From IMG/VR virus record IMGVR_UViG_3300035396_000446, positions 35,006 to 99,005 of that record: a stretch of DNA of 64,000 bases; one strand, written 5' to 3'. This document shows positions 21,329-61,167 of this stretch, one piece after another (position 1 is the first letter of the stretch; each line of letters begins with the position of its first letter). A program made the position numbers and the translations under genes. Under the pieces are notes generated by a model. The model made no database searches, had not been told where the DNA came from, and saw only the letters and a list, made by a program, of their open reading frames with translations. This DNA comes from a virus. Lineage: Duplodnaviria > Heunggongvirae > Uroviricota > Caudoviricetes.

Positions 21329-21357
21329 ATTATATAATGAAAAAAAATTCTTGTCAA
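21329..21357 (-). promoter_or_regulatory. sigma70-type consensus promoter (TTGACA-N17-TATAAT) for the SNF2 operon
   Basis: Minus strand reads TTGACA (plus 21352-21357), a 17-nt spacer, then TATAAT (plus 21329-21334), followed by AAGGAAAAAAT-ATG of the SNF2 gene. Confidence 0.6.
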
Positions 21358-21387
21358 GAGTAAAGATAATACTATAAGGAATAGATA

Positions 21388-22587
21388 ATGTTTACTGATA
21401 GAATACTAGATTTAGCCGGTATAAGAAATTCAAATAACTCCCTCAATACTAAGGGACGAAGTTTTAGTGATTTATGGACAATAAAGGAAGATGGCGCAAT
21501 ACAGGGGTCAAGTCTAGATAGAGTCTTAGAACTAGCGGGAGAATCTCTACTAGAGATGATTCAGGTCTCAAAGGCTAACAATGAAAGCGATTACGATATA
21601 ATAGCCTACAAAGATAAGATTTTTACTTACAATAATGAACAAAGAGAGGAAGTCGCGCCACTAATAATAAAGCATCTTGGATTAGAAAATTCAGAAATAC
21701 CTTATAACAACACTCCAATTGAAAACATGGAACAAGTTGAATACTATATTCAAGAAGAAGGCCCAGATGTTTTATATGGACGAGTATCGGACAATACTCT
21801 TTATCTTCACAGTTACGTTTTTAAGCACTCTAAACTTTCTTCTCTACTTAAAAAGGTTGTAAATCAGTTAGATATACTTGAAGTTAGTTATGATTATATT
21901 ACTAATGATGGAGAAGATTCTGAGGTTATAGTAAGACGAAATGAGATTGACGAAGAAATAAAGAATCACGTATTCTACCATGGCACTAGCTCCAAAGCTT
22001 TATATGGTATAGCACAAAAGGGGCTAATGCCAGGTGGAAGTAAAACTAACTTCCCAGGAATAGAGCATGATGAAGATATTTTCATTACAGTAAACAAAGA
22101 TAAGGCTTTTTTTCATGCGGAGACTGCTGCTAGAAATAACCAAGACATTCCTGTTATATTGGAATTAAGAGTTCCTAATCCATCTTTGCTGGGAGATGAT
22201 TATGATGTAGTTGTCAATATACTTAAATCTAACTCTGAGAAAAGCGATAGGTATGAGAATATAAATAGTAAAGTACGGAGACCAAAGACAACAGCGGATG
22301 AGAGTCTAATAAAAAGATTAACAGACACTGGAGAAGATATAAATAAAAAACTTGGTATATTTTCCTATTCTGGCAGAATCCCTGCAACTTATATAGACTC
22401 CTTTTTAATCGATGATGAAGCCTTTTCTTTTTATCACGTATACGAGGAAAAACCTGACAAAATAAAAGATTTAAACTCATGGGATAGGTATGATTTAAAA
22501 GATTTCAATGGTTATCTCGAAGATATAGAGAATAAATACGCACAAGAACAGGAAGATTACGAAGAAGACTATGAGGAAGAGGATTAG
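21388..22587 (+). CDS. ADP-ribosyltransferase-superfamily protein, Tpt1/KptA-like (RNA 2'-phosphotransferase / NAD-dependent)
   Basis: Only long plus-strand ORF (399 aa). VFYHGTSSKALYGIAQKGLMPGG...FFHAETAARNN...IPVILELR parallels E. coli KptA [23 protein letters not shown]...HLSADEATARKVG...SPVILTV. The HGT motif is also shared with diphtheria-toxin-class ARTs. Acidic C-terminal tail. AAGGA RBS 8 nt before the ATG. Confidence 0.55.
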   Translation: MFTDRILDLAGIRNSNNSLNTKGRSFSDLWTIKEDGAIQGSSLDRVLELAGESLLEMIQVSKANNESDYDIIAYKDKIFTYNNEQREEVAPLIIKHLGLENSEIPYNNTPIENMEQVEYYIQEEGPDVLYGRVSDNTLYLHSYVFKHSKLSSLLKKVVNQLDILEVSYDYITNDGEDSEVIVRRNEIDEEIKNHVFYHGTSSKALYGIAQKGLMPGGSKTNFPGIEHDEDIFITVNKDKAFFHAETAARNNQDIPVILELRVPNPSLLGDDYDVVVNILKSNSEKSDRYENINSKVRRPKTTADESLIKRLTDTGEDINKKLGIFSYSGRIPATYIDSFLIDDEAFSFYHVYEEKPDKIKDLNSWDRYDLKDFNGYLEDIENKYAQEQEDYEEDYEEED

Positions 22588-22617
22588 ACCCTCTAATCTA
22601 AAAAGATTAGAGGGCTA
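22588..22617. terminator. stem-loop between convergent genes
   Basis: CCCTCTAATC-TAAAAA-GATTAGAGGG, a 10-bp perfect inverted repeat placed exactly between the plus-strand gene stop (22587) and the minus-strand gene stop (22621). No clear U-tract. Confidence 0.4.
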
Positions 22618-22620
22618 GAA

Positions 22621-22923
22621 CTAGCTCTTCTTATTCATATTTTCAAACATCCCACCAAGACCCGCATAAGCAAATACTGTGCCCCATAAAGGTATTACTA
22701 TGGCTGTCCATAGCATAGCTGTCTCAGCTACAGCTTTATAGTTCATAAAAGTTAATACTAATAATGAAGCAGTAATAATAGCGGCCGCATATTTAGCAAC
22801 TTCAACAATTTGCCATTTTCTACTTGCTTTCTTCTTTAAGAGCTCGTAATGGAAGTCCTCCACGGTATCTTTATTATGCGATTTATTGACGGCGTTTTTA
22901 TCTTCTTCTGTTAATTTAAGCAT
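22621..22923 (-). CDS. small membrane protein
   Basis: 100 aa with two hydrophobic helices (AAIITASLLVLTFM..., AIVIPLWGTVFAYAGLGG). Confidence 0.45.
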   Translation of the reverse strand: MLKLTEEDKNAVNKSHNKDTVEDFHYELLKKKASRKWQIVEVAKYAAAIITASLLVLTFMNYKAVAETAMLWTAIVIPLWGTVFAYAGLGGMFENMNKKS

Positions 22924-22977
22924 GATTTCCCCCTAAGTGTAGATATTATCTTTACTTAGGAGTAAATTTTTGACAAT

Positions 22978-23436: not shown

Positions 23437-23438
23437 AA

Positions 23439-23861: not shown

Positions 23862-23877
23862 TGTTATTTCCTTTTTA

Positions 23878-23911
23878 ATATAGAGGTAAAAATATGATTT
23901 TACCTCTATAT
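23878..23911. promoter_or_regulatory. intercistronic stem-loop (14-bp stem)
   Basis: AATATAGAGGTAAAA/TTTTACCTCTATAT with loop ATATGA, directly between the stop at 23921 and the RBS of the gene at 23861. Confidence 0.4.
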
Positions 23912-23920
23912 CTTAGTTTT

Positions 23921-24499: not shown

Positions 24500-24537
24500 T
24501 TTTGTTCCTTTTTTTGTTTTTAATCCACTATTTGATA

Positions 24538-25407
24538 TTAAATATCAAATGTTTGTCCGACTTCTAGAAATCCTCGGAATCCGTCATCTTTTGCTTTTGT
24601 TTTCCAATCGCAAGGTTTCCCAAAGAAATCTTTATCATCAAGAACATAATCTTGATAATGACTTAACCACATTTTATTTTTAATTTCTAAAGGTAGCACC
24701 TCGGCATTTGCTTCTGGATACCCCGCTAATTCTGTGTAATTTGCATGTACCCCTGATTTGAAGGGTAGACACTCACAATCTTGAATAATAATATCAGCCT
24801 TAGAGTAAAACACTCTCACTTGTTTCGGGGAACAATGTTGGGAGTCCGTTGTAAAGTAAATAGATTGATGACCTTGCTTACTCACAATAAGGCCAAATGT
24901 ATCACTAATTTTAGATCCTGTCATTATGTGAACCTGTTGGATAAGTTCAAAGTTCCAACCCTGCCATATAAATGACTTATCTACGGGCTTTGGCTCAAAG
25001 TAAGTTTCAATTGTAGCGTCAAATCCCTCCATGGATTCTAAACCACCCCTTAATGTGTTTTTCCAAAGACTTTTAATTAATTCCTTCTGCGCATATAATT
25101 TAGGAGCATAGGGTTTCATCTTACCAATGTTTTCTAGCTGTGTAAAATCATTCCATCTTACAGGTCTATTCATCCAGTCATACCTATCAAAGGCGAAGTT
25201 CTCTAGAGATCCGCAATGATCGTTATGCTGATGTGAGATATATACACTATCTATATCTTTAAAAGATAACCCAGCATTTGTTAATGCCTCGGGGACTAGC
25301 CTCCCACAATCAATTAGCATTCGTTTGCCGTCCTGCTCTAGCACAAAGCTCTGATTAAAATTTCTTTTTGAGAATGCATTACCACATCCAATTATTGTTA
25401 TACGCAT
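24538..25407 (-). CDS. metallo-beta-lactamase-fold hydrolase (RNase Z/PhnP-like)
   Basis: 289 aa with MRITIIGCGNAF, LIDCG and ISHQHNDHCGSL (the HxHxDH zinc motif). Confidence 0.7.
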   Translation of the reverse strand: MRITIIGCGNAFSKRNFNQSFVLEQDGKRMLIDCGRLVPEALTNAGLSFKDIDSVYISHQHNDHCGSLENFAFDRYDWMNRPVRWNDFTQLENIGKMKPYAPKLYAQKELIKSLWKNTLRGGLESMEGFDATIETYFEPKPVDKSFIWQGWNFELIQQVHIMTGSKISDTFGLIVSKQGHQSIYFTTDSQHCSPKQVRVFYSKADIIIQDCECLPFKSGVHANYTELAGYPEANAEVLPLEIKNKMWLSHYQDYVLDDKDFFGKPCDWKTKAKDDGFRGFLEVGQTFDI

Positions 25408-25420
25408 ATTATTTTTCCTT

Positions 25421-26347
25421 TTATTTGATATAAAACCCGTTAGAATCTAACGTATCTATTTTTTGCTTTTGGGTTACAAAAACATCATAGAACTCATCTA
25501 CAATAAGTCTCATTTCTAAACTAAGCTGATTTAGTATTGGAGACTTGATTGCATTAGGTATTCCATAGAAAGCCTCTGCTATGCCCCCTACGATTGCGCA
25601 TAGAGTATCTGTATCCCCGCCTACCATAACTGCGTTTCGTATAGCATCTTCAAAGCTGGTAGAGTTTACAAAGCAATTAAAAGCTAAAGGCACTGTTCCT
25701 TGGCATGTTACATCGAACTTGTATGTTTTACTTATTACTTCTAAATCATCCCCAAGTAGGCTTCCCCTGTAAGGTGTCTCTACCCCTCGATAATGATCTG
25801 TGTATCCATTGATATAACATAAATCTAAAAACTTACACATGGAAGTATTAAAATCTCCCATCTCCGCTATGCTTGTTTGTAAAGCATTGTAAACCATTCC
25901 TGCTGTAGCTTGAGCCCCATATATGCCCTCTGAGTGATTATGGGTTACAGCCGCAGACTTAGCTGCTTCGATATGAATAGTTTCTATCGGGCAACTCAAA
26001 CTATAAGCGTATGCCACAGGAGCGACACGCATGGCTGACCCGTTACCATAACTATTGTAGGGGTTATTATCTTTATTTAACAGCCAAGCATGAAAACTCT
26101 GACCAAACCCAGATTTATACTTTCGTTGTTTATTAGAAAATGTGCTATTCTTAGAATACTTATTACCCCAATACTTATAGCATACCTCGTATGGCATTTT
26201 GTTTAACAGAGCATCCATAGTTGCTACTGTAAGAATTGTGTCGTCCGTAAAGAAACAAGAGTCATTAAACAAAGGAAAATCCTTGCTTCTATGATTCTCA
26301 AACTCGTATCTTGAACCTATGTAATCACCAATAATTGAACCTAACAT
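25421..26347 (-). CDS. ADP-ribosylglycohydrolase (ARH/DraG family)
   Basis: 308 aa with MLGSIIGDYIGSRYEF, FFTDDTIL, GNGSAMRVAPVAY and MVGGDTDT..AIVGGIAEAFYG, all hallmark ARH motifs. Confidence 0.75.
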   Translation of the reverse strand: MLGSIIGDYIGSRYEFENHRSKDFPLFNDSCFFTDDTILTVATMDALLNKMPYEVCYKYWGNKYSKNSTFSNKQRKYKSGFGQSFHAWLLNKDNNPYNSYGNGSAMRVAPVAYAYSLSCPIETIHIEAAKSAAVTHNHSEGIYGAQATAGMVYNALQTSIAEMGDFNTSMCKFLDLCYINGYTDHYRGVETPYRGSLLGDDLEVISKTYKFDVTCQGTVPLAFNCFVNSTSFEDAIRNAVMVGGDTDTLCAIVGGIAEAFYGIPNAIKSPILNQLSLEMRLIVDEFYDVFVTQKQKIDTLDSNGFYIK

Positions 26348-27236: not shown

Positions 27237-27265
27237 GAATTATATCATAGGGATGCTATAATTGC
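27237..27265 (-). promoter_or_regulatory. sigma70-type promoter TTGCAA-N17-TATAAT
   Basis: Minus strand reads TTGCAA (plus 27260-27265), a 17-nt spacer, then TATAAT (plus 27237-27242), in a 123-nt intergenic region upstream of the gene starting at 27147. Confidence 0.4.
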
Positions 27266-27270
27266 AAGTG

Positions 27271-27525: not shown

Positions 27526-27528
27526 GGG

Positions 27529-28026: not shown

Positions 28027-28792
28027 GTATCCTCACTGCTAGGTGGTATAATAGATTATCTTTAATTTTCTATTAGTTTTTACAATTTTTTTCTGTTATG
28101 ACCAAAATCTAAAAGCCCAGTCTAGTAATTTCTTGGTCATAAGATAAGATACTGTTATTGAAACTAAAAGTCCCAATATTAGTATCTTTACAGAATCTGT
28201 CATAAATGCAATGATATACACTACTGAGGGAATTAATTGTAATAAGAAATATTTAATCATTGTATTCCCCATATTAACATTAAAGCCGTTACGAACATTG
28301 TTACAAAACTCACCATTATTATAACCGATAACATTATTGGTGATATTGTAAATGAAGAAAATACATCTTGTGACTTGAGTGCCTTACTACTTATTAACCA
28401 TGTGATGATTGATGTTAGAAATATCTTTAAGATTAGTATTGTATTCATTTTGTCATCAATCCTAGTAAATATATGATAGACATGCTTATAACAATAGCAC
28501 CTACTAAATAGACACCAAAGCCTATTAGGGTTATTATCTTTGTGAGAATAGAACTATTCTCACATGATAAGTTTTTTATTGTTATCATTTTGTAATAATC
28601 ACTCATTTATGTTTCCTTATTTTGAGAAAATTGAATAATAAACCAGGGTCAAGTTCATTTTGATCTTCTAAATACCATTGTTCAATTTGATTGTACCTTT
28701 CCTTGGTAAGTTTAATTGATCTAATCCCAACTTTAAATTCGACTAAGTTGTCTTCTTCTGCTATCAGTACATCTTTATAATAGTTCACCATT

Positions 28793-30013
28793 TTATAGAA
28801 ACCTACCCATAAACTGATTTTTCGCTTCATCCAAGTTGCTTACTGATGTCAATAGATTGACATCAACAGAGGCACTCTTGTCCACGAACGTAGATCCTTT
28901 CGGGTCGGTTTTGGCCAACTCGGCCATACCTTGGTTTAGAATATTAATAGAGGCGTTATAGTCTCTATCTATTTCTAAACCACATTTTTCACATTTAAAA
29001 GTCCTATCTTTCAAAGTTAGATCAACTTTTTTCCAACCACAACTAGAGCATGTCTTACTGGAAGGGAAGAACCTATCTACTTGATGAATAGTTCTACCAT
29101 ACCAACCTGACTTATATTTTAATTTTGTAACAAAAGAAGACCAAGACACATCATGGATTGCTTTGGCTAGTTTGTGATTTCTCACTATTCCTTTTATATG
29201 TAAATCCTCCAAACAGATAACTTGGCTCTCGTTAGCTATTTTAGAAGATAATTCATTTAAAAAATGGTTTCTCTGATTTGATACATGAAGATGGACTTTT
29301 GCTAACTTTACTCTTTGTTTTTCATAACGATTACTTCCTTTTACTTTTCTACTTAGCCTTCTTTGTAGAGTCTTTGTTTTATTTTCTGAATTTCTTCCAA
29401 AATGGGGATTCTCTATAATAGTTTTATCAGACATTACAGCAAACTCTTTTAGGCCTAGATCTATCCCAATGGATTTTGACTGGACCGGTAAGGTAGGAAT
29501 TTCTACATCACATAAGATTGATGCGAAATAATGACCTACCTTATTTTTGGATATAGTCACGTTACATATTTTTATAGTTTGTAGTATATCAAGGTATGAC
29601 CCCGATGCCTTAAATGAAACAAACCCAAGTTTTAATAATTTTATCTTAGTCTCAAGTACTTTACAGAAAGTTTCTGTCTGTGGTTCTCTATATGAATCTT
29701 TCATCCCCTTCTTCTTAAACTTAGGGAACCCTGATCCCATCTTTTTCATATTTTTGAAAGCTTCTGTTAAATCATTTTGAGCTTGTTGTAGTCCCCTAGA
29801 AGACCCTAAGGCCAACCATTCCAACTCTTTCTTAAAATCTTTTGGATTTAATTGTTTAAAGCCCTCATAACTACCATGCTCTTTTTTCCAAGAAATAACA
29901 TGTTCAAGACATTTATTATACCAAAAACGACAGTTTCCTATTGTCTGATTAATTTGTTGTTCCTGTTTTTTGTTAGGATACAATCTGACTTTAAATGCCT
30001 TCTTTCGTATCAT
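28793..30013 (-). CDS. tnpB: TnpB (OrfB) RuvC-like RNA-guided nuclease, IS200/IS605 family
   Basis: 406 aa. N-terminal KVRLYPNKKQ...CRFWYNKCLE; RuvC-I IGIDLGLKEFAV; RuvC-II VICLEDLHIKG; zinc finger CSSCGW...CEKCG; RuvC-III DRDYNASINI. All catalytic residues present. Confidence 0.8.
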   Translation of the reverse strand: MIRKKAFKVRLYPNKKQEQQINQTIGNCRFWYNKCLEHVISWKKEHGSYEGFKQLNPKDFKKELEWLALGSSRGLQQAQNDLTEAFKNMKKMGSGFPKFKKKGMKDSYREPQTETFCKVLETKIKLLKLGFVSFKASGSYLDILQTIKICNVTISKNKVGHYFASILCDVEIPTLPVQSKSIGIDLGLKEFAVMSDKTIIENPHFGRNSENKTKTLQRRLSRKVKGSNRYEKQRVKLAKVHLHVSNQRNHFLNELSSKIANESQVICLEDLHIKGIVRNHKLAKAIHDVSWSSFVTKLKYKSGWYGRTIHQVDRFFPSSKTCSSCGWKKVDLTLKDRTFKCEKCGLEIDRDYNASINILNQGMAELAKTDPKGSTFVDKSASVDVNLLTSVSNLDEAKNQFMGRFL

Positions 30014-30438: not shown

Positions 30439-32049
30439 TTAATACTCTATATCATCAAAAAGTAATGGGATACTTTCTTGAAACTCTTTTAGTAAAGGTC
30501 TCATTAACTCATGCATAATTGGATGTGCTACATCAGCAGTTCGTAAATCCATAATGTGTCGCCACTCTCTAATATTTGTGGTAACAACGATATCTGCTTT
30601 AATTCCAATAGGAAGTACATCCCTTGCAACTTGTGCTTTTACACCCATTCCAATAAGTTTCATGTAATTATTTTGAGAAGATTCCCAAGAGGATAAGAAT
30701 ATATCCTTGGCTTCTTGTCCAAGATTTTCAATATAGTCTGGAATGATTACTGAAATTTCGTTTCCGAACTTTTCTTTTGAATAATTCACGTATCTTGTAC
30801 TGTTATGGGTGATAAATCCTTCAGCAACATAATTGTTTAAAGGAGAGTTCATCTCCAAATCATAAAAAAACTCTTCTACTCCAATCTTTTCTATACTCGT
30901 TATTCTAGATAGTTTGGTATAAGAACATTTTTTCATCTCTTTATGGATCAACTTATGGCATTTGACACATAAAGGTAAAAGATTATACTCCTCATTATTT
31001 TTGGTATCTTTATCCGAGTGATGTCTCTCCTTTGCAGTGGACCCACAATTTAAGCATACAACCTCCTTTAATGAGAAGTTTCTATTAGCTCTACTATACC
31101 CATTCTTTACAGAGTTGCCTAGCCACGCACTATTTTCTTCACCTTTCCCGTTGTTGTGATGGTGGTTTCTTAATGTCTCGGCCTGTTTAGCTACAGATTT
31201 ATTTTCTGACTCTTTTACCCCACGATTCCATACTACCCTCCCATTCTTATATTGATTGTCTATTGTTTCTTTCATTTTTTTATAAGAATCTTCAGTATGA
31301 TTTATGTTGTATTTTCCTGGGTTTTTATCATTTTTCCTAGGAGTAAAAACATTTAATTTTTTAAGGATACGTATAATGCTTCTATATGGAATTTTATGCT
31401 TTTCACTTATTTCCAGAGGGCTCAAGTCTTTGTACTCTTCCACTAGTGAATCCTCGTCTATATTTAAGAGAGATGGTCTTCCGTTGACATTAATATACTC
31501 GCCAACTTTAAGATTTTTTACTGAATCATACTCGTTACTGTTCCTTAATAATTTGTGCTCGCAAGAACAGTCTAAGGAGTACCCTTCTTCCGTGTTAGCC
31601 CTGTATACATCTCCACCTTTCTTTTTGAATACGTGCATAATCTTATTGGCGACTATTAACTGATCATTTGTTACACTTTTTGCTAAGGGAAGGCTTTCCC
31701 CCTTTTCTTGCAGCTCATGTAGTTCTTCAATTGTTATCTTTGTCCCATCTGACATACTTATTTTTGTATTACCTGTGACACATTCCTGGGCAAAAGAAGC
31801 TAAACGCATTCTAACAATTTCATGGCTGAATCCCCGGTTTCCGTGGAATAGAACAGATATTACAGGAGCATGTTCAATCATCGCTTCATGTTTATTTTTA
31901 AGTAAAGTAGCAATCATTTTAAGATCGCTACCCTCTTGAATCAGATCTTCTGATTTATAACAAACCCTAGCAATTCTCTCAATCTGTTTTGTGAACTCTG
32001 TATTCCTGATGTCAGTTAAAATTTCATATGTTGGTTTTATTAATCTCAT
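30439..32049 (-). CDS. thyX: flavin-dependent thymidylate synthase ThyX interrupted by an intein
   Basis: N-extein (aa 1-89) has ARVCYKS and HxxIxxxRxRLASFAQE. The sequence is then broken by C (CVTGNTKI) and resumes after ...ITHN with STRYVNY, restoring the ThyX R(H/M)RxxSxxxxSxRY motif. Exteins total about 209 aa. Confidence 0.8.
   Translation of the reverse strand: MRLIKPTYEILTDIRNTEFTKQIERIARVCYKSEDLIQEGSDLKMIATLLKNKHEAMIEHAPVISVLFHGNRGFSHEIVRMRLASFAQECVTGNTKISMSDGTKITIEELHELQEKGESLPLAKSVTNDQLIVANKIMHVFKKKGGDVYRANTEEGYSLDCSCEHKLLRNSNEYDSVKNLKVGEYINVNGRPSLLNIDEDSLVEEYKDLSPLEISEKHKIPYRSIIRILKKLNVFTPRKNDKNPGKYNINHTEDSYKKMKETIDNQYKNGRVVWNRGVKESENKSVAKQAETLRNHHHNNGKGEENSAWLGNSVKNGYSRANRNFSLKEVVCLNCGSTAKERHHSDKDTKNNEEYNLLPLCVKCHKLIHKEMKKCSYTKLSRITSIEKIGVEEFFYDLEMNSPLNNYVAEGFITHNSTRYVNYSKEKFGNEISVIIPDYIENLGQEAKDIFLSSWESSQNNYMKLIGMGVKAQVARDVLPIGIKADIVVTTNIREWRHIMDLRTADVAHPIMHELMRPLLKEFQESIPLLFDDIEY
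30802..31782 (-). other. intein (327 aa) with embedded HNH homing-endonuclease domain, inserted in the ThyX RHR/SxRY active-site motif
   Basis: Cys+1 at 31782-31780; terminal His-Asn (30807-30802) followed by Ser+1 (30801-30799, checked against the nucleotides). HNH module: CLNCGSTAKERHHSDKDTKNNEEYNLLPLCVKCHKLIH. Confidence 0.75.
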
Positions 32050-36493: not shown

Positions 36494-36763
36494 TTAGTAA
36501 GTACATTCATAGCAACAATATTTCTTCCAGTCATCTCTCAACATTTTCTTTCGTTTAACTTTAACGCCACATTTACAGACATCAGATTCTGGCAGACATA
36601 CATGATGTAGTTCATCTATACCAATACAGTCAATATACATTTCAATATCAGAATAATCAGTTTTAGAATCTTTTTCGTCAAATGCTTCTTGTGTCATTTC
36701 TTCAGTTTCTTTTATTAGTTTCTCGATGAATTTCAAATCTTTTGAAGTCATTTTGTTACCCAT
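36494..36763 (-). CDS. small Cys-rich protein
   Basis: 89 aa with CKCGVKVKRKK...CCYEC. Confidence 0.35.
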   Translation of the reverse strand: MGNKMTSKDLKFIEKLIKETEEMTQEAFDEKDSKTDYSDIEMYIDCIGIDELHHVCLPESDVCKCGVKVKRKKMLRDDWKKYCCYECTY

Positions 36764-36768: not shown

Positions 36769-36845
36769 TATTATATCATGAATTTTTGTAGAAACATTTG
36801 CTTTAAATTCTGCCGATATTCTACCATGATTCAAATAGAATGTCA
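36769..36845 (-). promoter_or_regulatory. tandem sigma70-type promoters upstream of the gene at 36763
   Basis: Distal: TTGACA (plus 36840-36845), 17-nt spacer, TAGAAT (36817-36822) with TGg. Proximal: extended -10 TGATATAAT (TATAAT at plus 36769-36774). Confidence 0.45.
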
Positions 36846-36850
36846 AGTAT

Positions 36851-38638: not shown

Positions 38639-38950
38639 TCAATCCAAGTATTTATTATTTTTCTTAATAACTTTCTCAGTCTTTGTCATATCTTTTTTTA
38701 GTTTATCTGCGAAGGCATATTCTTCTTTTGAAACTAATCGTTCTTTTGCAGGATAACCAAAGATTTTATTTTCAGGTTTTTCATTTTCAATGTATTCATC
38801 TATGTATTGAAATGCTTTTTCCAATGTTTGTCTAAATACTGGGAGATTACGAAAATTATTAACTACATCTACCATATTAAACCACATGAAAAATATTCTC
38901 TTCTGTGGGTAATACATATTATCAACTCTTACTACTCGATATTTTTTCAT
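38639..38950 (-). CDS. hypothetical protein
   Basis: 103-aa ORF. Start context AAAGGACAAACAAATG, directly downstream of a consensus promoter. Confidence 0.4.
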   Translation of the reverse strand: MKKYRVVRVDNMYYPQKRIFFMWFNMVDVVNNFRNLPVFRQTLEKAFQYIDEYIENEKPENKIFGYPAKERLVSKEEYAFADKLKKDMTKTEKVIKKNNKYLD

Positions 38951-38973: not shown

Positions 38974-39002
38974 ATTATATCATGGTTCTTTAGGTGTGTC
39001 AA
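38974..39002 (-). promoter_or_regulatory. sigma70-type consensus promoter TTGACA-N17-TATAAT (extended -10 TGaTATAAT)
   Basis: Minus strand: TTGACA (plus 38997-39002), 17-nt spacer ending CATGA, TATAAT (plus 38974-38979), then a roughly 17-nt leader to the AAGGA RBS. Confidence 0.55.
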
Positions 39003-39018
39003 ATGCTTTAAATTTCTA

Positions 39019-39423
39019 TTAATAATGAATAGAATCATCTATAATAGAAAATAATAAAGCGACACCAAATATAGTTATTTCACATATAACAAATAATCTC
39101 AACCAAAAGAAAGATGACAAACTCATTATTTTATCTAAAGGAATTAATAAATATTTATTATCCCAGTATAGGAAAGCACTAAATCCATAGTATAAAAATC
39201 CAAATAATATTGCTAATATAATTAGTACAGGAAAAACCCAAAGAAATTTGATAGCAAATGCTATGTGAGGGTGTTTACCCCATAAGGGTTCTCTAAGAAA
39301 TTCTTTATTCATTTTAAAAACTCCCATTCTGTACCATGTAAATAGGTGCAATAGCAATAAGTTCACACCATGACCAAGCATCTTCATGCCCGCCATTAAA
39401 GAAGAAATTGTAAATATATACAA
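39019..39423 (-). CDS. membrane protein
   Basis: 134 aa with several hydrophobic helices. Confidence 0.4.
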   Translation of the reverse strand: MYIFTISSLMAGMKMLGHGVNLLLLHLFTWYRMGVFKMNKEFLREPLWGKHPHIAFAIKFLWVFPVLIILAILFGFLYYGFSAFLYWDNKYLLIPLDKIMSLSSFFWLRLFVICEITIFGVALLFSIIDDSIHY

Positions 39424-42526: not shown

Positions 42527-42700
42527 TTGTTAATCCTTTTTTTTATTAGAGTCTCTAACATGTATGGCAAACCAAACAATAGCAGTTAGCCAGCCGAACA
42601 CTGCTTCCCAATTTTCTTTATGAAATGCGTTAATTACATTAAGCATGAGCACGGTTCCAAGAAAGATATAAAATGAGGTAGCTATATTATTATTTTTCAT
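42524..42700 (-). CDS. small membrane protein (58 aa), not in ORF track
   Basis: ATG 42700-42698 with AAAGGACAAACAAATG context. MKNNNIATSFYIFLGTVLMLNVINAFHKENWEAVFGWLTAIVWFAIHVRDSNKKRINK. Stop overlaps the HAD start (ATGA). Confidence 0.35.
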
Positions 42701-42727
42701 TTGTTTGTCCTTAACTTAATTTTGGAT

Positions 42728-42756
42728 ATTATATCATGATAGCGAAATAAAAGCAA
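42728..42756 (-). promoter_or_regulatory. sigma70-type promoter TTGCTT-N17-TATAAT (extended -10 TGaTATAAT)
   Basis: Minus strand: TTGCTT (plus 42751-42756), 17-nt spacer ending CATGA, TATAAT (plus 42728-42733). Near-identical copy at 44700-44728. Confidence 0.55.
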
Positions 42757-42830
42757 GTGTGTATCTCGGTAAAAATAGAATTTTTTTTAGAGGAACGAAT
42801 AGAGGCTTATAACCCCTATTCGTTAGGATA

Positions 42831-44211: not shown

Positions 44212-44396
44212 CTTATCGCAGTATAAATGATTCCTAAGTTGCAGAAAACTAAAGCTATTAGTAACTCTCTAGTTGTTTGTAAATCGAAAGCTAATAAAAG
44301 TAAAAAGTATATTATCGCAAAACCTATTGTAATAAACAACATATTCATTTCCTTACGCCCAGATTTGTGGTTCGTTCTTCCAAAGTAGCCATTCAA
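44178..44396 (-). CDS. small membrane protein
   Basis: 72-aa ORF with two TM helices. Confidence 0.35.
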   Translation of the reverse strand: MNGYFGRTNHKSGRKEMNMLFITIGFAIIYFLLLLAFDLQTTRELLIALVFCNLGIIYTAIRWWYYTRRILK

Positions 44397-44667
44397 ATAA
44401 CATATGACCCCATTTTGCTACATGAGCTGCGTGGAGTCTTGCAATTTCTTTTTTATTTTCATCAATTCTACGCTTAATTGTTTGTATGTCTCTTTCCAAA
44501 ATATATGAGTTTTTTGTAAGCAAACTAATTTTTGAATCGTTGTAGAAAATTTCAAACTCAGTAGAAATATAACCTAAACTTAGGAAATTATCAATTTTCC
44601 ACCAGATGGTTCTTTTTGATTTAATATAATTGTAGGCTGGGATTAGTTCTTCTGTCTGTCGTATCAT
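44353..44667 (-). CDS. hypothetical protein
   Basis: 104-aa ORF with an AGGAG RBS, directly downstream of a promoter. Confidence 0.4.
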   Translation of the reverse strand: MIRQTEELIPAYNYIKSKRTIWWKIDNFLSLGYISTEFEIFYNDSKISLLTKNSYILERDIQTIKRRIDENKKEIARLHAAHVAKWGHMLFEWLLWKNEPQIWA

Positions 44668-44699
44668 TTTCTCTCCTAAGCTGAATGTTTAGGGGGGAT

Positions 44700-44728
44700 A
44701 TTATATCATGATATGGAAATAAAAGCAA
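44700..44728 (-). promoter_or_regulatory. sigma70-type promoter TTGCTT-N17-TATAAT (extended -10)
   Basis: Minus strand: TTGCTT (plus 44723-44728), 17-nt spacer ending CATGA, TATAAT (plus 44700-44705). Paralog of the 42728-42756 element. Confidence 0.55.
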
Positions 44729-44734: not shown

Positions 44735-44772
44735 AACAGAATAATTTACATTTTTTTGCAAATTATTCTGTT
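44735..44772. terminator. stem-loop (12-13 bp stem) at operon boundary
   Basis: AACAGAATAATTT-loop-AAATTATTCTGTT between the stop of the gene at 44779 and the promoter at 44700-44728. T-run follows on the plus side. Confidence 0.4.
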
Positions 44773-49900: not shown

Positions 49901-50098
49901 TTATTTTTCCTCTATTTCTTCTTCGACGCTATAGTCTACGTCTACTCTCTTATCTGCGCCAGAGTACATATGTGTACCATCTATTAATTTCTGAAATATA
50001 TCTCGCATTTCAATTAGCGCCTCTTTACTCCAATTTCTATAGTTCCAACCACAAGTACATGGGTCATCCCAACACTGTATGCAACTTCTTAATGACAT
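49901..50098 (-). CDS. hypothetical small protein
   Basis: 65 aa with a CIQCWDDPCTCGW Cys cluster. Confidence 0.3.
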   Translation of the reverse strand: MSLRSCIQCWDDPCTCGWNYRNWSKEALIEMRDIFQKLIDGTHMYSGADKRVDVDYSVEEEIEEK

Positions 50099-50646
50099 TT
50101 TTGTCTCCTTATTTCTCTTATCTTATCACGAACCTGCTGAAAAGTCAAGGGTCTTAGTCCATGAAGTTCGCAGTTGACATTGAAGTATCTTTCACCCAAT
50201 TGTTGTATTTTAGTTTGGTCATTTCCAGGATGGAGGTGACCATGTAAATTTATTGCGTCTTTCCATCTCCCCTCTAATTGCATCGGATGAATAGGTACAT
50301 GTGTTAAAACAAACTCGGAGTTCTCTTCATAGCCGCCCCTAACAAAAATAGAGACAACTTTATCGAAATATTGGAATAGCTTTTTATTCATATCATGGTT
50401 CCCCATTATAAGAACTTTCTTTCCATTAAGTCTTGGAAGTATTCTATCTATGGATGTTTCAGGTTTGAAACATACGTCCCCAAAGTGATAAACAGTATCG
50501 TCCCAGGAGACATCTTCATTCCAATTCTTGATAAGGGTCTCATCATGTTCTTCTATTGAACTAAACCCTCTTGCTTCGTAAATGAATTTTTTGTTATGAC
50601 AAAAATGCGTATCAGATATAGCAAATGATTTTTGATTCTTTCCCAT
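50089..50646 (-). CDS. calcineurin-like metallophosphoesterase (second copy; Ser/Thr or polynucleotide phosphatase-like)
   Basis: 185 aa with ISDTHF (DxH), HFGDV (GD), IMGNHD (GNHD), VLTHVP and LHGHLH motifs. Confidence 0.65.
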   Translation of the reverse strand: MGKNQKSFAISDTHFCHNKKFIYEARGFSSIEEHDETLIKNWNEDVSWDDTVYHFGDVCFKPETSIDRILPRLNGKKVLIMGNHDMNKKLFQYFDKVVSIFVRGGYEENSEFVLTHVPIHPMQLEGRWKDAINLHGHLHPGNDQTKIQQLGERYFNVNCELHGLRPLTFQQVRDKIREIRRQKCH

Positions 50647-53269: not shown

Positions 53270-53479
53270 TCATTTTTTAATTTCTCCTTTAATATCTTCA
53301 TAATTACAAGTTATTATAAAGTCATTTCCTTCATCTGTCAGCTTCATAAAATATTCACATGCTTCAGTACATCTATTCGGTATTTCATTGATGTCTTCCT
53401 GGTTTTTTCCAATATTATACGGACATCTAAAACCACCGTCAATACTTACTTGTGCTATATTAGTTCTTATTTCTTTCAT
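53270..53479 (-). CDS. hypothetical small protein
   Basis: 69-aa ORF with scattered Cys. Confidence 0.3.
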   Translation of the reverse strand: MKEIRTNIAQVSIDGGFRCPYNIGKNQEDINEIPNRCTEACEYFMKLTDEGNDFIITCNYEDIKGEIKK

Positions 53480-55415: not shown

Positions 55416-55419
55416 TATA

Positions 55420-55674
55420 TTAATCCTTTTTCAATAACTTATCAATAAGGTTTTGTGTGACACGATCATAAAATCTATTTAAAGCCTTTTCTTCTTCTGT
55501 AAGTGTAGGTTGTCTTAATTTTGGTTCTTCATATCTTGGAGAATGAGGCACACTAACAACTAAGCCCGAAAAAAATAAATAAATATCACACCTGTTAAGG
55601 GGTAATACTTGACAATGCGTTTTTTTGTTATCCCACCATTCTTTTAAAAGATAACTTGTATCAAACTCACTCAT
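55420..55674 (-). CDS. hypothetical protein
   Basis: 84-aa ORF. Confidence 0.35.
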   Translation of the reverse strand: MSEFDTSYLLKEWWDNKKTHCQVLPLNRCDIYLFFSGLVVSVPHSPRYEEPKLRQPTLTEEEKALNRFYDRVTQNLIDKLLKKD

Positions 55675-56048
55675 TAGTTAAACTCATGATACGAGCATAA
55701 AAGCAGCACTATAAAGGATAGACCTATAGAGAAAAAAGCAATGAAAAACCTATAGAACTCTCCAGCTCTATCTTGTAGTAGCATTGCCTGTAACTGCTTG
55801 CCGATATTAAAATCTAATGAAACTAAAATCATAAAAAGTAATAATATAAAAGTACCTATTAGTGTAGCTATGACAAATGTCGATAAGAATATCCCTATAA
55901 GTTTAAATATCTTTAAAATGACATTAATACACTTTTTCCAAAAAGGAGTTGGCTTATAAGGTCTACTAGACTCTAGCAGAATATCAAAATACTCGATTCC
56001 AATACGATTATATTCTTTCTGTTCTTCTTCTGTTTTTATTTGACTCAC
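55674..56048 (-). CDS. membrane protein (GTG start)
   Basis: 124 aa with three TM helices. The start codon is GTG (plus 56046-56048 = CAC) with an AGGAG RBS 7 nt upstream. Directly downstream of a promoter. Confidence 0.4.
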   Translation of the reverse strand: MSQIKTEEEQKEYNRIGIEYFDILLESSRPYKPTPFWKKCINVILKIFKLIGIFLSTFVIATLIGTFILLLFMILVSLDFNIGKQLQAMLLQDRAGEFYRFFIAFFSIGLSFIVLLLCSYHEFN

Positions 56049-56065
56049 ACATTACTCCTACGCCT

Positions 56066-56094
56066 ATTTTACCATGATATATGATTTTTGTCAA
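56066..56094 (-). promoter_or_regulatory. sigma70-type promoter TTGACA-N17-TAAAAT (TGg extended -10)
   Basis: Minus strand: TTGACA (plus 56089-56094), 17-nt spacer ending CATGG, TAAAAT (plus 56066-56071). Overlaps the 3' end of the nucleotidyltransferase gene and marks the end of the five-gene operon. Confidence 0.5.
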
Positions 56095-57026: not shown

Positions 57027-57036
57027 TATTATATCC

Positions 57037-58668
57037 TTAGCTGCTAATTTTGTATATAGTTTTATCTTTTATTCCCAATACCTGGTCTTCCCTATTGACT
57101 AACTTATATTCAGATAAGCCAGAATTAGGTATAACTTTTACATCATTTTGAGACACTGACTGAGCAAAAATTTCTGCGGAGTCATCCCCATTGACTTTAA
57201 ATACCACGCCCTTTGGTAAGCAAACAAAGTTTATACCACTATAGGATATATCCTTATTTATTCTAACAATTGGGTCTGTATATTCTTTTGAGAACTTAAA
57301 GATATATTCGTCGTACTTGCCTTGATAACTACTAATTATCACAAGTACAGTTTTATCGAACTTAGCATCTACTATTTGACCTTTAATATCTTTTAAAGGT
57401 AACTGCATATGCGTTTTCTTATTAGGAAAAAAAGATAATACAGGAGTTCCTAGTAGATTTTGAATAGCACATCCTGTATAAAATGTGGTTGCATTAGGTA
57501 GTACAGATGCTACAGGGTATAAAACAGGATAGGTTGCTGTTAGGTCAGTAATTTCTACTATTTGCTCCCCTATAAGTACATATACTCTTCCCTCGTAATT
57601 CAGGATGTTCTTTACTGCGCCACTATAAGTCCCTTTGATAGTTTTTAATTTATTGATATAATGTAGCTCTCTATTTTTTAATTCAACATAGAAAAACTCT
57701 TTGCCATTATCTAATATTGAAACTATCCCCTCTAAATCTATAGAATCTACATAGGTTTTAGAGGAAGTATAGACAATCTCCACTGCTCCAATTTTCTTGT
57801 AATTAACAATATCCGAGTCTTTACTAATATATTGATCAATCTTAAAAACACAAACGGTATCAATATGTTTTTGAATAACCACTACCGATCCCACTTGGTC
57901 TATCATGTTTGGGTCTAATCTCTTACCTTGCTCGAAGATAGCATGGAACCAACCTTTATAGTTCTGAGGAATCATATTGAGATCCGCCACAGGGGGCACT
58001 GAAACTTCTGCATTTAATACCGACAAGTTTTTTAGCATCCTGTCATTGATATCTTTTACTGTTGGGTGCTTCCCCTTATAAGGATGTATGCCAGTTAACA
58101 TCTGAAATGCTAATACAGCATAGGAAAACCAATCTGTTTCTTTTGAAAACTGTTTGGCATGTCTATCTCTAATACTATCCATAATAGCCGTAGCAGGGTA
58201 CGTCTTGGTTTGATAAGAATCTACATCAATTGCATATAATTTCTTAAAAGACGAATCTAATAGAAAATTGAGTTCATTCATGTCTACTATAAGGATGTTA
58301 TTAGAGTGACAATTATTCATTATAACCTGTAACTGCTTCATAAGATTTACAATAGTGTCTGCTTTTATTTGATTTCTCACTTTAAAAGCTTTTGTAAATA
58401 TTTGACACAAAGCAGTAGTATCTGTCACATAATTCATAGTATACCCAACTGCTTTCGTACCCTCATAAATGATGTCTTCTGGTTTAATAATACTTGGCTC
58501 TTTTAATACCGCCAACTCTTTAATCTTATCGGTAGGAATCATTTTATTGGGGTCTATATATAGTTTATAGGCTACCCCATCTTTTGCATAGATATGACCT
58601 TCCCCGCCGGAAGCGACAAAGTTATTTTTTGTTAAATCAATGTGTCTGTTTTTAACTGTTACTTGCAT
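57037..58668 (-). CDS. eukaryotic-like Ser/Thr protein kinase with about 290-aa C-terminal extension
   Basis: 543 aa. Gly-loop ASGGEGHIY; VAYKLY (beta3 Lys); catalytic loop HSNNILIVDMNELNFLL (like HRDLKPENILL); AIDVDS in the DFG position; FSYAVLAFQMLTGIHPY in the APE/alpha-F region. Confidence 0.7.
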   Translation of the reverse strand: MQVTVKNRHIDLTKNNFVASGGEGHIYAKDGVAYKLYIDPNKMIPTDKIKELAVLKEPSIIKPEDIIYEGTKAVGYTMNYVTDTTALCQIFTKAFKVRNQIKADTIVNLMKQLQVIMNNCHSNNILIVDMNELNFLLDSSFKKLYAIDVDSYQTKTYPATAIMDSIRDRHAKQFSKETDWFSYAVLAFQMLTGIHPYKGKHPTVKDINDRMLKNLSVLNAEVSVPPVADLNMIPQNYKGWFHAIFEQGKRLDPNMIDQVGSVVVIQKHIDTVCVFKIDQYISKDSDIVNYKKIGAVEIVYTSSKTYVDSIDLEGIVSILDNGKEFFYVELKNRELHYINKLKTIKGTYSGAVKNILNYEGRVYVLIGEQIVEITDLTATYPVLYPVASVLPNATTFYTGCAIQNLLGTPVLSFFPNKKTHMQLPLKDIKGQIVDAKFDKTVLVIISSYQGKYDEYIFKFSKEYTDPIVRINKDISYSGINFVCLPKGVVFKVNGDDSAEIFAQSVSQNDVKVIPNSGLSEYKLVNREDQVLGIKDKTIYKISS

Positions 58669-59512
58669 TTGTTATTTCCTTTGGAAATATGATAGAGGAT
58701 ATTGATATATCATCGTAATGTGTAATGTTATTTTTCTTACATTCTTTCAAGAACTTATTCATCGTTCTCTGAGTAACCCCAGATGTGAGTAGTTTAAAAT
58801 CATTCATCTTTTTCACAATAGTAATTGGGTCGATAGGATTATTCTCTGCATCTAAGAAAGAAAAAACTCCGTCAGACATTACAGATACATATTCTACAGA
58901 CCCCTTGGTAACATTATGACTGAAATGACACTCTAGAACGTCACGCTTGATATTTGAAATTTCAAGCCCACCAGCTTGCGTTAATATACTATGTAAAGTG
59001 TAGGAACTCTTATTTAAAATATCTACCTTTGCTTTACGGTTTAAATCATATGAGTATATTGGATAATACGGGTACCCCGATTCATAAGAGAGCAAAAATA
59101 GTTGGGAGTCTCCGTCAATGTATTTTATATAAACGGCACCATCTCCTATAGCTTTAATACATATTTCTCTACCTAGCTCCAAAGCATACAAAAGAGTAGC
59201 ATCTATAGGAGTTGTTCCATCTGTATTTTTAATCCCGAAATCTCGTTCTACTATATCTAATGCAGTTTTTACAGTTTGGACAATACTTAGGTCGCCTCGG
59301 TCAATCGTAAGATTATTTTTTAAAACATTTGCCAACACCATGGAACCTATATGGGTGTTCCCTGACCCCGAGCATCCGTCTGATATAATCGCTATACCAT
59401 TTCCTGACGTAGCATGGTCTTCACAAAAGACGTGGGTATTTCCTTTGGCAAAATAAAAATCTGTAAACATGGTGAACCACCTATTGAATTTTTTTGTAGC
59501 TAAGGTACACAC
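58652..59512 (-). CDS. PP2C-family (PPM) Ser/Thr phosphatase
   Basis: 286 aa with FCEDHATSGNGIAIISDGCSGSG (ED...DG.G motifs I/II), VMSDGVF and C-terminal YDDISISSIIF (DDIT motif). Confidence 0.65.
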   Translation of the reverse strand: MCTLATKKFNRWFTMFTDFYFAKGNTHVFCEDHATSGNGIAIISDGCSGSGNTHIGSMVLANVLKNNLTIDRGDLSIVQTVKTALDIVERDFGIKNTDGTTPIDATLLYALELGREICIKAIGDGAVYIKYIDGDSQLFLLSYESGYPYYPIYSYDLNRKAKVDILNKSSYTLHSILTQAGGLEISNIKRDVLECHFSHNVTKGSVEYVSVMSDGVFSFLDAENNPIDPITIVKKMNDFKLLTSGVTQRTMNKFLKECKKNNITHYDDISISSIIFPKEITNASNS

Positions 59513-59536
59513 CTGGATAGGTGCATACCTTAATTG

Positions 59537-60289
59537 TTAAATGCTTAGACTAATTGGCTTTGAAGCTCCGCCTGATCCAAGCGATTGGCTTTGAGCACTG
59601 ATTGACTTACTAACAAACTGAGCGAGTTTTGCAAGTGTATTCGCATTTGCATTATCGATCTTTTCGTATTGAGAAAACTCTGCTTCTGTTTTGAAGTCAG
59701 TAAGAAACTTATCAACATCTACGTCAGAGGTATTCACCCCGATTAGAATTGTTAGAATAGATTCCAAACTGGTCTCTTCTTTTTGAACTTGTTTAATGAG
59801 TTTTGCAACTTCTTTAGATGTATTTGTTGATTGATTATCATCACCATCTGTGATAACAAATACAATACCATTTACATCGAAATCTTGTGCTGTAAGCTCT
59901 GCGCCATATTGTCTTGTTGCCTCGATACCATTGATTGTTGCATCAAACAACGCAGTCATACCGTAAGGTTTAACAGCATCTTGGTAATCTGACAAATTAC
60001 ACTCGGAGAGCAGTTTGAACCCGTGCTGTTCTGTAACATCTGCATTGAATGAAACGAGTCGGATCATAAGATTATCGGCTCTTGGGGATTTTTGACAAGA
60101 TTTAACAACTTCTTGAATCGCTTTTACAAGGTCATCTCGGAATGAACTTACGGAACCAGATACGTCTACTACTAGAGTAACTAAAGTGTATTCCGAACTA
60201 CCAAGATTTACTAATTTTGTTTTACTGAATTGAAAGCCCCCTGTTTTAACTGCGGGGGTAACTTCCATTGTGTCTGTATTGAATCTCAT
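59537..60289 (-). CDS. von Willebrand factor A (vWA) domain protein, TerY-like
   Basis: 250 aa with MIDAS LVVDVSGSVSS, a downstream T (GMTALFDA) and VFVITDGDDN. Confidence 0.65.
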   Translation of the reverse strand: MRFNTDTMEVTPAVKTGGFQFSKTKLVNLGSSEYTLVTLVVDVSGSVSSFRDDLVKAIQEVVKSCQKSPRADNLMIRLVSFNADVTEQHGFKLLSECNLSDYQDAVKPYGMTALFDATINGIEATRQYGAELTAQDFDVNGIVFVITDGDDNQSTNTSKEVAKLIKQVQKEETSLESILTILIGVNTSDVDVDKFLTDFKTEAEFSQYEKIDNANANTLAKLAQFVSKSISAQSQSLGSGGASKPISLSI

Positions 60290-60304
60290 GTTAATGCTCC
60301 TGTA

Positions 60305-61105
60305 TTATTTAAGGAATTCGTTTGTTGTGGATAACTTCATACCGCGAGCAACCATGCTGTTGATGAAGTCATCTTGGTCTTTCTCGAAACCTGTTACAGG
60401 GCTAGTTGCGTCAGTAAGAAGGGTTACTTTACTTACATATTTGTCTCCGCCTAGAGCATCAACAATATCAATAAGAGTAAACTTCAAACAATGACTTCCT
60501 GCTTCCCCTGCGATAACAAGGTTGTCCACAGCCTCTAAACTTTCAGTAAGGGTAGTATTAAGCTGTGTGCTTAGGTCCGCTGGATCGGGAACTTCTGCTT
60601 TAACTGCTGAATAATGTTCTGTAAGGAAATTGCTCCCTTTTGTAACATAGTCAACATTTGCCACATATTTATCGCCCCAGGTAAGAAGAGATGTATATAG
60701 GTCTGATACAATTTGTGTTCCCCAACTTCCAATAAGGCAATGAGCTGGCCATACACATAATAGATAACGTCCGTTATCTTTAAGAGCCTTAGTGTAAGAT
60801 AGCGCATATTTAGAGAAAGAAGGTATCGTTGGCATCCATGTCCCATTTGCAACATCATCATAAGAGATGATTGTAAACGGATTCGGTTTTTGTCCAGAGG
60901 AATTTTTCCAAAACCCTGGGTGGGCGATGTCAAGTAAGTGATGGCTGTCTAAAGTAACGTGAATGTCCGTTAGTTTAGCACCAACTCGGTCAATCATTTT
61001 TGCAAGTCGAGACATATCTTTGTCTGCACCTGCAACAAAAAGCGCACCTTTAGAGTCACAGAAGTCATTCTGTGGGTCGATGATAAGTAATTGTGTGTTT
61101 TGCAT
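60305..61105 (-). CDS. pncA: nicotinamidase (PncA-like, isochorismatase superfamily)
   Basis: 266 aa. LLIIDPQNDFCDSKGALFVAGAD matches M. tuberculosis PncA IIVDVQNDFCEGGSLAVTGGA. TLDSHHLLDIAH is the D/H metal site. WPAHCLIGSWGTQI matches WPPHCVSGTPGADF. LVIAGEAGSHCL is the catalytic Cys region. Confidence 0.7.
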   Translation of the reverse strand: MQNTQLLIIDPQNDFCDSKGALFVAGADKDMSRLAKMIDRVGAKLTDIHVTLDSHHLLDIAHPGFWKNSSGQKPNPFTIISYDDVANGTWMPTIPSFSKYALSYTKALKDNGRYLLCVWPAHCLIGSWGTQIVSDLYTSLLTWGDKYVANVDYVTKGSNFLTEHYSAVKAEVPDPADLSTQLNTTLTESLEAVDNLVIAGEAGSHCLKFTLIDIVDALGGDKYVSKVTLLTDATSPVTGFEKDQDDFINSMVARGMKLSTTNEFLK

Positions 61106-61138
61106 ATATTATCCTGTTAGTTTTTTTTTAGGAAGCTT

Positions 61139-61167
61139 ATTATACCATGATTGTATAAAAAAAGCAA
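61139..61167 (-). promoter_or_regulatory. sigma70-type promoter TTGCTT-N17-TATAAT (TGg extended -10) for the pncA-vWA-PP2C-kinase-NTase operon
   Basis: Minus strand: TTGCTT (plus 61162-61167), 17-nt spacer ending CATGG, TATAAT (plus 61139-61144). Leader ends ACAGGATAATAT-ATG of pncA. Confidence 0.55.

Follow-up and report, generated by a model that had tools for sequence, protein, structure and literature searches.

The stretch of DNA considered here, called the window in the following, comprises 64,000 nucleotides (bases 35006-99005) of a 190,870-bp metagenomic phage contig (ENA ERZ27248460 k141_226049) and carries a family of sigma70-like promoters that is the subject of this analysis. Nearly all of the 121 open reading frames (ORFs) called in the window lie on the minus strand, in an array that starts at a divergent junction about 9 kb beyond the right window end. 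In the left part of the window, a T4-type portal is encoded (PF07230, E = 4e-70), accompanied by the large terminase, a gp4-like head-completion protein, a tubulin-like protein and a weakly gp55-like protein, and the genes for a gp21-type prohead protease (Peptidase_S77) and the Gp23 capsid protein are situated just outside the window in the adjoining contig sequence. Portal_T4, Gp23 and Peptidase_S77 place the source in the T4-like group, the gp55-like assignment being weak; the contig stems from an uncultured 191-kb T4-like myovirus. Rightward of about 19.4 kb follows an array of small ORFans, among which genes for a SNF2 helicase, an Apyc1-like hydrolase, an ADP-ribosylglycohydrolase, methyltransferases, an intein-bearing ThyX, a TnpB-like transposase, RNA-repair proteins and a nicotinamidase-like/VWA/PP2C/kinase module are interspersed. 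This gene content is typical for an early region.

Nine promoter sites had been listed in a sequence-only reading of the window, and all nine are indeed present on the minus (gene) strand. The six sites at 21329-21357, 38974-39002, 42728-42756, 44700-44728, 56066-56094 and 61139-61167 had been placed exactly, whereas three were off by 1-2 nt and were corrected (27237-27265 to 27239-27267, 36817-36845 to 36818-36846, and 36769-36774 to 36770-36775). The family is given below with one further site, at 19416, that was absent from the earlier list, and with one weak candidate. The canonical score, with a maximum of 14, is built on TTGACA, a spacer of 16-18 bp, TG and TATAAT, and its expectation was derived from first-order Markov shuffles; ranks are those of a leave-one-out position weight matrix (PWM).

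61139..61167, minus strand: promoter TTGCTT-N17(..aatCATGg)-TATAAT, leave-one-out rank 5; in the intergenic gap 61106-61218, 34 nt 5' of the ATG of the nicotinamidase-like/VWA/PP2C/kinase module
56066..56094, minus strand: promoter TTGACA-N17(..tatCATGg)-TAAAAT, canonical score 13/14; 18 nt 5' of the start of ORF 55674-56048, with the -35 overlapping the stop codon of a nucleotidyltransferase gene
50120..50148, minus strand: weak candidate TTGACT-N17(TG)-TAAGAT, canonical score 11/14, PWM score 15.3; 22 nt 5' of ORF 49901-50098
44700..44728, minus strand: promoter TTGCTT-N17(..tatCATGa)-TATAAT, leave-one-out rank 4; 33 nt 5' of ORF 44353-44667
42728..42756, minus strand: promoter TTGCTT-N17(..tatCATGa)-TATAAT, leave-one-out rank 4; in the intergenic gap 42701-42830, 28 nt 5' of ORF 42530-42700
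38974..39002, minus strand: promoter TTGACA-N17(..aacCATGa)-TATAAT, the only site with 14/14 (0.01 expected); 24 nt 5' of ORF 38639-38950
36818..36846, minus strand: promoter TTGACA-N17(..aatCATGg)-TAGAAT, canonical score 13/14, leave-one-out rank 4; upstream half of a tandem pair ahead of ORF 36494-36763
36770..36780, minus strand: extended -10 only (CATGATATAAT) without a recognizable -35, leave-one-out rank 1713; TATAAT at 36770-36775, the ATG of ORF 36494-36763 6 nt after the -10
27239..27267, minus strand: promoter TTGCAA-N17(..cctATGa)-TATAAT, leave-one-out rank 17; 32 nt 5' of a 28-aa ORF with a good Shine-Dalgarno site, followed by a methyltransferase block
21329..21357, minus strand: promoter TTGACA-N17-TATAAT without TG, leave-one-out rank 9; 18 nt 5' of the SNF2-type helicase gene and divergent from the sole plus-strand gene
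19416..19444, minus strand: promoter TTGACA-N17(..gttATGg)-TAGAAT, canonical score 13/14, leave-one-out rank 10; inside the final 17 nt of the helicase ORF, the ATG of ORF 18787-19410 5 nt after the -10

The candidate at 50120 has a PWM score inside the range of the shuffle maxima, and its membership in the family is uncertain. The other ten sites all lie in or at intergenic gaps, about 6-92 nt 5' of start codons. When 10 kb past the right window end were scanned, two further members came to light on the same contig (positions 2073-2101 and 6560-6588 of the right-flank stretch L046), both of them TTGACA-N17(..tatCATGt)-TAAAAT in intergenic gaps. The structural (gp21/gp23) module to the left of the window (stretch L045) contains no member of the family.

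Alignment on the -10 element yields the consensus c-TTG(A/C)(C/T)(A/T)-ttatt.....aTCATGr-TAtAAT-At. The -35 element agrees with TTGACA in at least four of six positions at nine of the ten sites (five with 6/6, TTGCAA with 5/6 and three TTGCTT with 4/6), the spacer measures exactly 17 bp at all nine window sites that have a -35 and at both right-flank sites, and the -10 hexamer conforms to TAtAAT throughout (seven TATAAT, two TAGAAT and one TAAAAT). The TG of an extended -10 is present at -15/-14 in nine of the ten window sites and in both right-flank sites, the 21329 promoter having TT. Across these twelve sites, T-15 is invariant and G-14 occurs in 11, and conservation continues further upstream with A-16 (12/12), C-17 (10/12) and T-18 (10/12). 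The region from -60 to -36 is 76% AT as compared with a window mean of 67% (P ~0.002 by resampling), which is a modest effect. The formula by which the family had originally been described therefore applies to most of the nine listed sites, albeit not to all: TTGMYW is found in seven of the eight with a -35 but not at 27239 (TTGCAA), a spacer ending in CATGR in seven of nine but not at 27239 (TATGA) and 21329 (CATTA), and TATAAT in seven of nine, the remaining two having TAGAAT and TAAAAT, respectively.

Statistical support for the extended motif is strong. CATGRTANAAT occurs nine times in the window as opposed to 0.78 +/- 0.85 times in dinucleotide shuffles, none of 100 shuffles reached nine, and the copies are split 8:1 between the minus (gene) and the plus strand. 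Canonical scores of at least 13/14 are attained by four minus-strand sites where 0.16 are expected, and by one plus-strand site. In the leave-one-out test, nine of the ten sites ranked 4th to 21st of about 128,000 positions, with 36770 as the exception. The scan of both strands with the PWM retrieved nine of ten sites within the top 21. Core matches are not equally frequent on the non-gene strand (8:1); equal frequency inside coding sequence on that strand had been named in advance as a finding that would refute promoters. A loose generic sigma70 scan (at least 9/12) revealed no enrichment over shuffles, with 88-111 sites per 20 kb; AT-richness alone yields many weak matches, and significance is restricted to the top-scoring extended -10 class. 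Two plus-strand sites may be antisense promoters or chance matches. One is a near-consensus extended -10 at 27254-27262 (TGCTATAAT), interleaved face-to-face with the 27239 promoter, and the other is located antisense within the kinase gene at 57635-57662 (TTGATA-16-TGATATAAT, 13/14).

It is quite probable, in our judgment, that the sites serve as early promoters of the strong UP/-35/TGn/-10 type for unmodified host RNA polymerase (RNAP) with the housekeeping sigma70/sigmaA, which would need no help from phage proteins. From sequence, statistics, placement, strand bias and phage type, all of which are observed, we infer the use of host RNAP, the timing and the start sites. The sequence-only reading had likewise proposed sigma70-type extended -10 promoters for early transcription by host RNAP; computationally, the proposal was upheld by the strand bias, by the intergenic position of the sites, by the self-consistency of the PWM and by the lack of members in the structural module.

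T4-type early promoters are the closest known kind, joined for three of the sites by terminator/promoter cassettes of the promoter-early stem-loop (PeSL) type discussed below. T4 early promoters are strong and contain parts of all four elements, UP, -35, TGn and -10 (PMC2613000), and early promoters predicted in five T4-like genomes are situated 5' of early genes and novel ORFs in the correct orientation (PMC1524935). All sequence features of the general sigma70 UP/-35/TGn/-10 class were found in the window family (-35, spacer, -10, TG and AT-rich UP region), and so was the placement of T4-type early promoters (Pe), namely 5' of early-type genes and ORFans in the direction of transcription and absent from the late structural module. 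The family resembles the Pe of T4, RB69, RB49, 44RR and Aeh1 in the many strong copies of host-sigma70 type with UP, -35, TGn and -10, in the position of these copies 5' of early genes and small novel ORFs, and in the company of morphogenesis genes of the T4 type and of late promoters that form a class of their own. It differs in the -35, which is TTGACA, TTGCTT or TTGCAA here as opposed to GTTTAC/GTTGAC in T4-like phages, in the extended -10 TCATGr and in the only distant relationship of the phage; homologues of Alt/Mod, AsiA and MotA, moreover, were not seen in the window, unlike in T4. When about 120 of the 121 window ORFs were screened against Pfam and PHROGs, no phage RNAP, MotA, AsiA or anti-sigma family was found. 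With Gram-positive sigmaA promoters, the family shares a consensus -35 and -10, the 17-bp spacer and conserved bases upstream of the TG. The consensus of the -16 region in these promoters is -17 TRTG -14 (PMC2613000); A-16 fits the R, but 10 of 12 sites have C in place of the consensus T at -17, and T-18 is conserved in addition.

The proposed mechanism follows established sigma70 biology. Sigma region 4 would contact the -35 and region 2 the -10, the TG would be bound by region 3.0 with a probable contribution of T-18, C-17 and A-16, and the AT-enriched segment from -60 to -36 could offer contacts to the C-terminal domain of the RNAP alpha subunit. Initiation would take place about 6-8 nt after the -10, and the resulting leaders would be short (10-50 nt) and carry Shine-Dalgarno sites. 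Two sites, 19416 and 36770, have the ATG 5-6 nt after the -10 without a Shine-Dalgarno site, so that the mRNAs may be leaderless. Firing would be directed to the left, through the minus-strand array with its small ORFans and its genes for anti-defence, RNA repair and nucleotide metabolism, and as the promoters are spaced 2-11 kb apart, expression would be boosted anew along the long early region. Stem-loops upstream of three sites would probably attenuate incoming transcripts.

Several points weigh against this interpretation. The weakest member of the family, 36770, lacks a -35 and fails the leave-one-out PWM test. Neither reference pattern is matched completely, since the -35 departs from the T4 early consensus GTTTAC, located at -36 to -31 (PMC1524935), and the C at -17 from the Gram-positive TRTG (PMC2613000). 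A polymerase or sigma factor that is encoded by the phage, for example in the other ~127 kb of the contig, may mimic sigma70 specificity. A search for the signature TTGACA-N12-ATCATGRTATAAT in 185,579 genomes returned only 15 scattered matches, which are spread over Anaerolineae, Bacteroidota, Bathyarchaeia, Clostridia, Saccharibacteria and others and therefore provide no host signal. Finally, no relatives close enough for phylogenetic footprinting were found, none exceeding ~70% protein identity with usable context.

The searches for relatives give the following picture. Megablast with 10 kb against 50,697 phage records yielded zero matches, tblastn with the helicase and the portal gave identities of at most 33% (at most 33% also for the portal against any cultured phage), and scans of IMG/VR with five proteins retrieved only distant or module-level relatives. 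Among 5.8 billion proteins, the next-best match of the helicase (37%) stems from a bacterial defence-island context labelled as a Spirochaetota metagenome-assembled genome and not from a phage. The matches of the nicotinamidase-like protein level off at ~60% identity. Contigs L043, L062 and L063 of relatives contain no members of the promoter family. Several distant large phages (L015, L016, L032, L035 and L039) also have sigma70-like promoters upstream of their orthologous nicotinamidase-like modules.

The promoters are biologically expected and statistically solid; what is new lies in the lineage of the phage and in the precise sequence of the extended -10, the mechanism being known already, and the current understanding of phage transcription is not changed by them. 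Their map can be used as a transcription plan of an uncultured 191-kb phage and marks the ORFan, anti-defence (Apyc1-like), RNA-repair and kinase/phosphatase genes that are probably expressed first. In addition, the sites could supply strong, compact promoter parts, and TCATGrTAtAAT, the precise signature, may give a hint at the host.

Among the alternatives, mobile regulatory cassettes of the PeSL type fare best. PeSLs are known from the T4-type phages RB49/phi1, T4/PST and KVP40/nt-1 (PMC2839356, PMC4122927), and according to this explanation the sites would be terminator/promoter modules that also act as short patches of homology by which ORFan cassettes are shuffled through recombination. 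We regard this as possible, though on balance unlikely. Just as in PeSLs, strong sigma70-like promoters recur in an ORFan-rich region of a T4-like phage, an AT-enriched stretch lies upstream of the -35, and some of the promoters are coupled to stem-loops directly upstream:

44735..44772, minus strand: 16-bp stem-loop abutting the -35 of the 44700 promoter, -17.3 kcal/mol, z -7.8, none of 200 shuffles as stable
42794..42824, minus strand: 14-bp GC-containing stem-loop upstream of the 42728 promoter, -19.8 kcal/mol, z -4.9
39005..39060, minus strand: long AT-rich stem-loop directly upstream of the 38974 promoter, -18.4 kcal/mol, z -6.5

The first of these is likely to function as a terminator or attenuator for upstream transcripts. 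Unlike in PeSLs, however, the stems are AT-rich or mixed and devoid of GGGG/CCCC tracts, and seven of the ten sites are without a significant stem-loop; three of these seven (61139, 56066 and 27239) were folded and compared with shuffles, and none had a significant upstream structure. None of the stem-loops passed a canonical terminator scan. A further hairpin (44670-44698, minus strand) is situated in the 5' untranslated region, the leader of ORF 44353-44667, where CCCCCCTAA pairs with TTAGGAGAG and would sequester the Shine-Dalgarno site; its fold energy is not significant relative to shuffles (z +0.46).

The extent of similarity between the copies also bears on the cassette explanation. Over 38 nt, the cores of the 42728 and 44700 promoters agree in 84% of the positions, non-consensus bases of the spacer among them, a point in favor of cassettes, and the longer shared block that had been noted from the sequence is therefore real. 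Identity among all copies amounts to 0.61-0.84 within the core from -40 to +3 and drops to 0.22-0.39, i.e., to background, in the flanks of all pairs, so that conservation ends at ~38 nt as compared with ~100 bp in PeSLs. The genes downstream of the promoters are not paralogous to each other. The earlier view of the sites as paralogous copies is not supported, because similarity stops at the ~38-nt core, and an origin by duplication was rejected in view of the background identity of the flanks and the lack of paralogous downstream genes; common function accounts for the resemblance of the cores at least as well. PeSL-type cassettes would complement the promoter function and are no replacement for the reading as host-type early promoters.

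The units between window promoters range from 48 nt (tandem pair) to 11.4 kb and contain 0-32 genes each. Their description as discrete operons agrees with the significant upstream stem-loops at three of ten sites but not with the absence of such structures at the three others tested nor with the failed terminator scan. Nested transcripts with read-through are just as likely as insulated operons, and a region that is promoted anew several times and insulated in part is the better description.

A more far-reaching proposal combines two elements: the cores, three of them fused to stem-loops, would be PeSL-like portable terminator/promoter cassettes that shuffle ORFans, and the conserved T-C-A at -18 to -16 would reflect a distinct sigma region 3 specificity of the host clade, all this in a deep-branching T4-like lineage. 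We consider this combination improbable; if the distinct sigma region 3 specificity were true, the motif could be usable for host prediction.

It is very unlikely that the family consists of two temporal classes, with TTGACA marking early promoters and TTGCTT (61139, 44700 and 42728) marking activator-dependent middle promoters comparable to the MotA-box promoters of T4. In T4, the MotA box TGCTTtA lies 11-13 bp upstream of the -10 and replaces the -35 (PMC1524935), and the three sites do share cTTGCTTTT(a/t)TTT, which contains the TGCTT core of that box. Their TGCTTTT, however, is 15 bp away from the -10, TTGCTT occupies the exact sigma70 -35 position (17-bp spacing) with a 4/6 match to TTGACA, and the screen of the window ORFs mentioned above uncovered neither MotA nor AsiA. 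Furthermore, the same TTGCTTTTT...ATCATGATATAAT architecture occurs in L044 (IMGVR_UViG_3300045988_140357), an unrelated 103-kb viral contig with 39% GC, where TTGCTTTTTTTTTAAAATCATGATATAATAT at 3671-3699 directly follows a terminator hairpin. This argues for a generic strong promoter of the host type, and the L044 virus may infect a host with similar promoter preferences.

The conservation of T-18, C-17 and A-16 (10/12, 10/12 and 12/12) exceeds the needs of a TGn element, and it could also be explained if ATCATGAT, which overlaps the -10, were the operator of a dimeric repressor or a switch based on CATG methylation that shuts down all promoters together. The perfect 12-bp palindrome ATATCATGATAT at 44700 and the presence of methyltransferase genes in the window fit such a switch. 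At six sites where position -13 is G or T, however, the left half ATC is unchanged; as it stays constant whatever the base at -13, the dyad is not preserved. A repressor-like protein was not identified, and the frequency of CATG across the window is unusual in neither direction (observed/expected ratio, O/E, 0.89). The lack of a maintained palindrome and the unremarkable frequency of CATG favor contact with RNAP over an operator or methylation switch, which we hold to be highly improbable.

The probability that the sites are mere chance matches to an AT-rich consensus in a 67% AT genome is negligible: the count of the loose scan is no higher than in shuffles and some high-scoring sites are intragenic (31954-31982, 53313-53341 and 53414-53442), but the extended motif is more than tenfold enriched, biased 8:1 in strand, confined to gene starts and self-consistent upon leave-one-out, and chance origin was refuted by shuffle enrichment, canonical scoring and the leave-one-out PWM. 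The three intragenic sites themselves are located within well-supported ORFs, lack the CATG core and were set aside as chance matches; those at 53414-53442 and 53313-53341 are also without TG.

A second motif, (T)AAAGATAAT, is present 14 times in the window as compared with 4.4 expected occurrences. It has no -35 partner, as would be expected of a gp55-type promoter. The following copies were recorded:

4625-4633, minus strand: intergenic copy, 22-49 nt 5' of a gene as are the next three
15716-15724, minus strand: intergenic copy
22945-22953, minus strand: intergenic copy
28055-28063, minus strand: intergenic copy
21362-21370, plus strand: copy before the only plus-strand gene
15082 and 18172 of L045 (left structural stretch): copies outside the window
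3184 of the relative L043: copy outside the window

Overall, intergenic copies are found 22-121 nt 5' of genes. In the capsid module, the motif has a gene-strand bias of 12:0, with intergenic copies in the gaps that flank the gp23 block, and one copy is positionally conserved before an orthologous 87-aa gene in L043 (~50% identity). The motif is a candidate for a promoter of the late or middle class that the gp55-like sigma factor would use. A gp55-like sigma had initially been taken to imply a separate late programme. The assignment of this protein is weak (PHROG match phrog_234, E = 3e-4); tblastn gave no match in phages, no sequence match was obtained in the PDB, and two relatives were retrieved from among 5.8 billion proteins, one with 73% identity on a 1.4-kb contig and one with 49%. 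A putative separate late programme is nevertheless supported independently by the second motif with its copies ahead of structural genes, and the contrast between the two motifs suggests that the T4 dichotomy of early and late promoters has been kept in a very distant relative.

Some additional features of the window deserve mention. In the left part, the gene for the tubulin/FtsZ-family GTPase (7867-8901, minus strand; PF00091, E = 6e-15) neighbors a 1193-aa ORF without a family match. A gene resembling TnpB/IS605 OrfB (28793-30013, minus strand; OrfB_IS605, Cas12f1-like TNB domain and HTH_OrfB) is located within the early region, and the ThyX gene (30439-32049, minus strand) is split by an intein that harbors an HNH endonuclease (Pfam Thy1 and Intein_splicing; PHROG HNH). 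The anti-Pycsar Apyc1-like metallo-hydrolase is encoded at 24538-25407 (minus strand) and the ADP-ribosylglycohydrolase at 25421-26347, and a SET-domain protein as well as RNA-repair genes (two RNA ligases, a RlaP nucleotidyltransferase and a PNK-like protein) are among the matches in the window; together, these genes suggest an early arsenal for anti-defence and RNA repair. The four-gene module at 57037-61105 (minus strand) specifies a nicotinamidase/isochorismatase-like protein, a VWA protein, a PP2C phosphatase and a Ser/Thr kinase and is syntenic in about 30 large IMG/VR phage contigs with GC contents of 26-63%. For its first gene, the nicotinamidase-like one, over 4,800 homologues exist in phages and bacterial chromosomes, with identities of ~60%. 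The window has zero matches in Rfam, and no tRNAs were found in it. Across its full length, GATC is strongly depleted (O/E 0.50), and CGCG (0.44), GGCC (0.60) and CCGG (0.66) are also under-represented, which is consistent with restriction avoidance.

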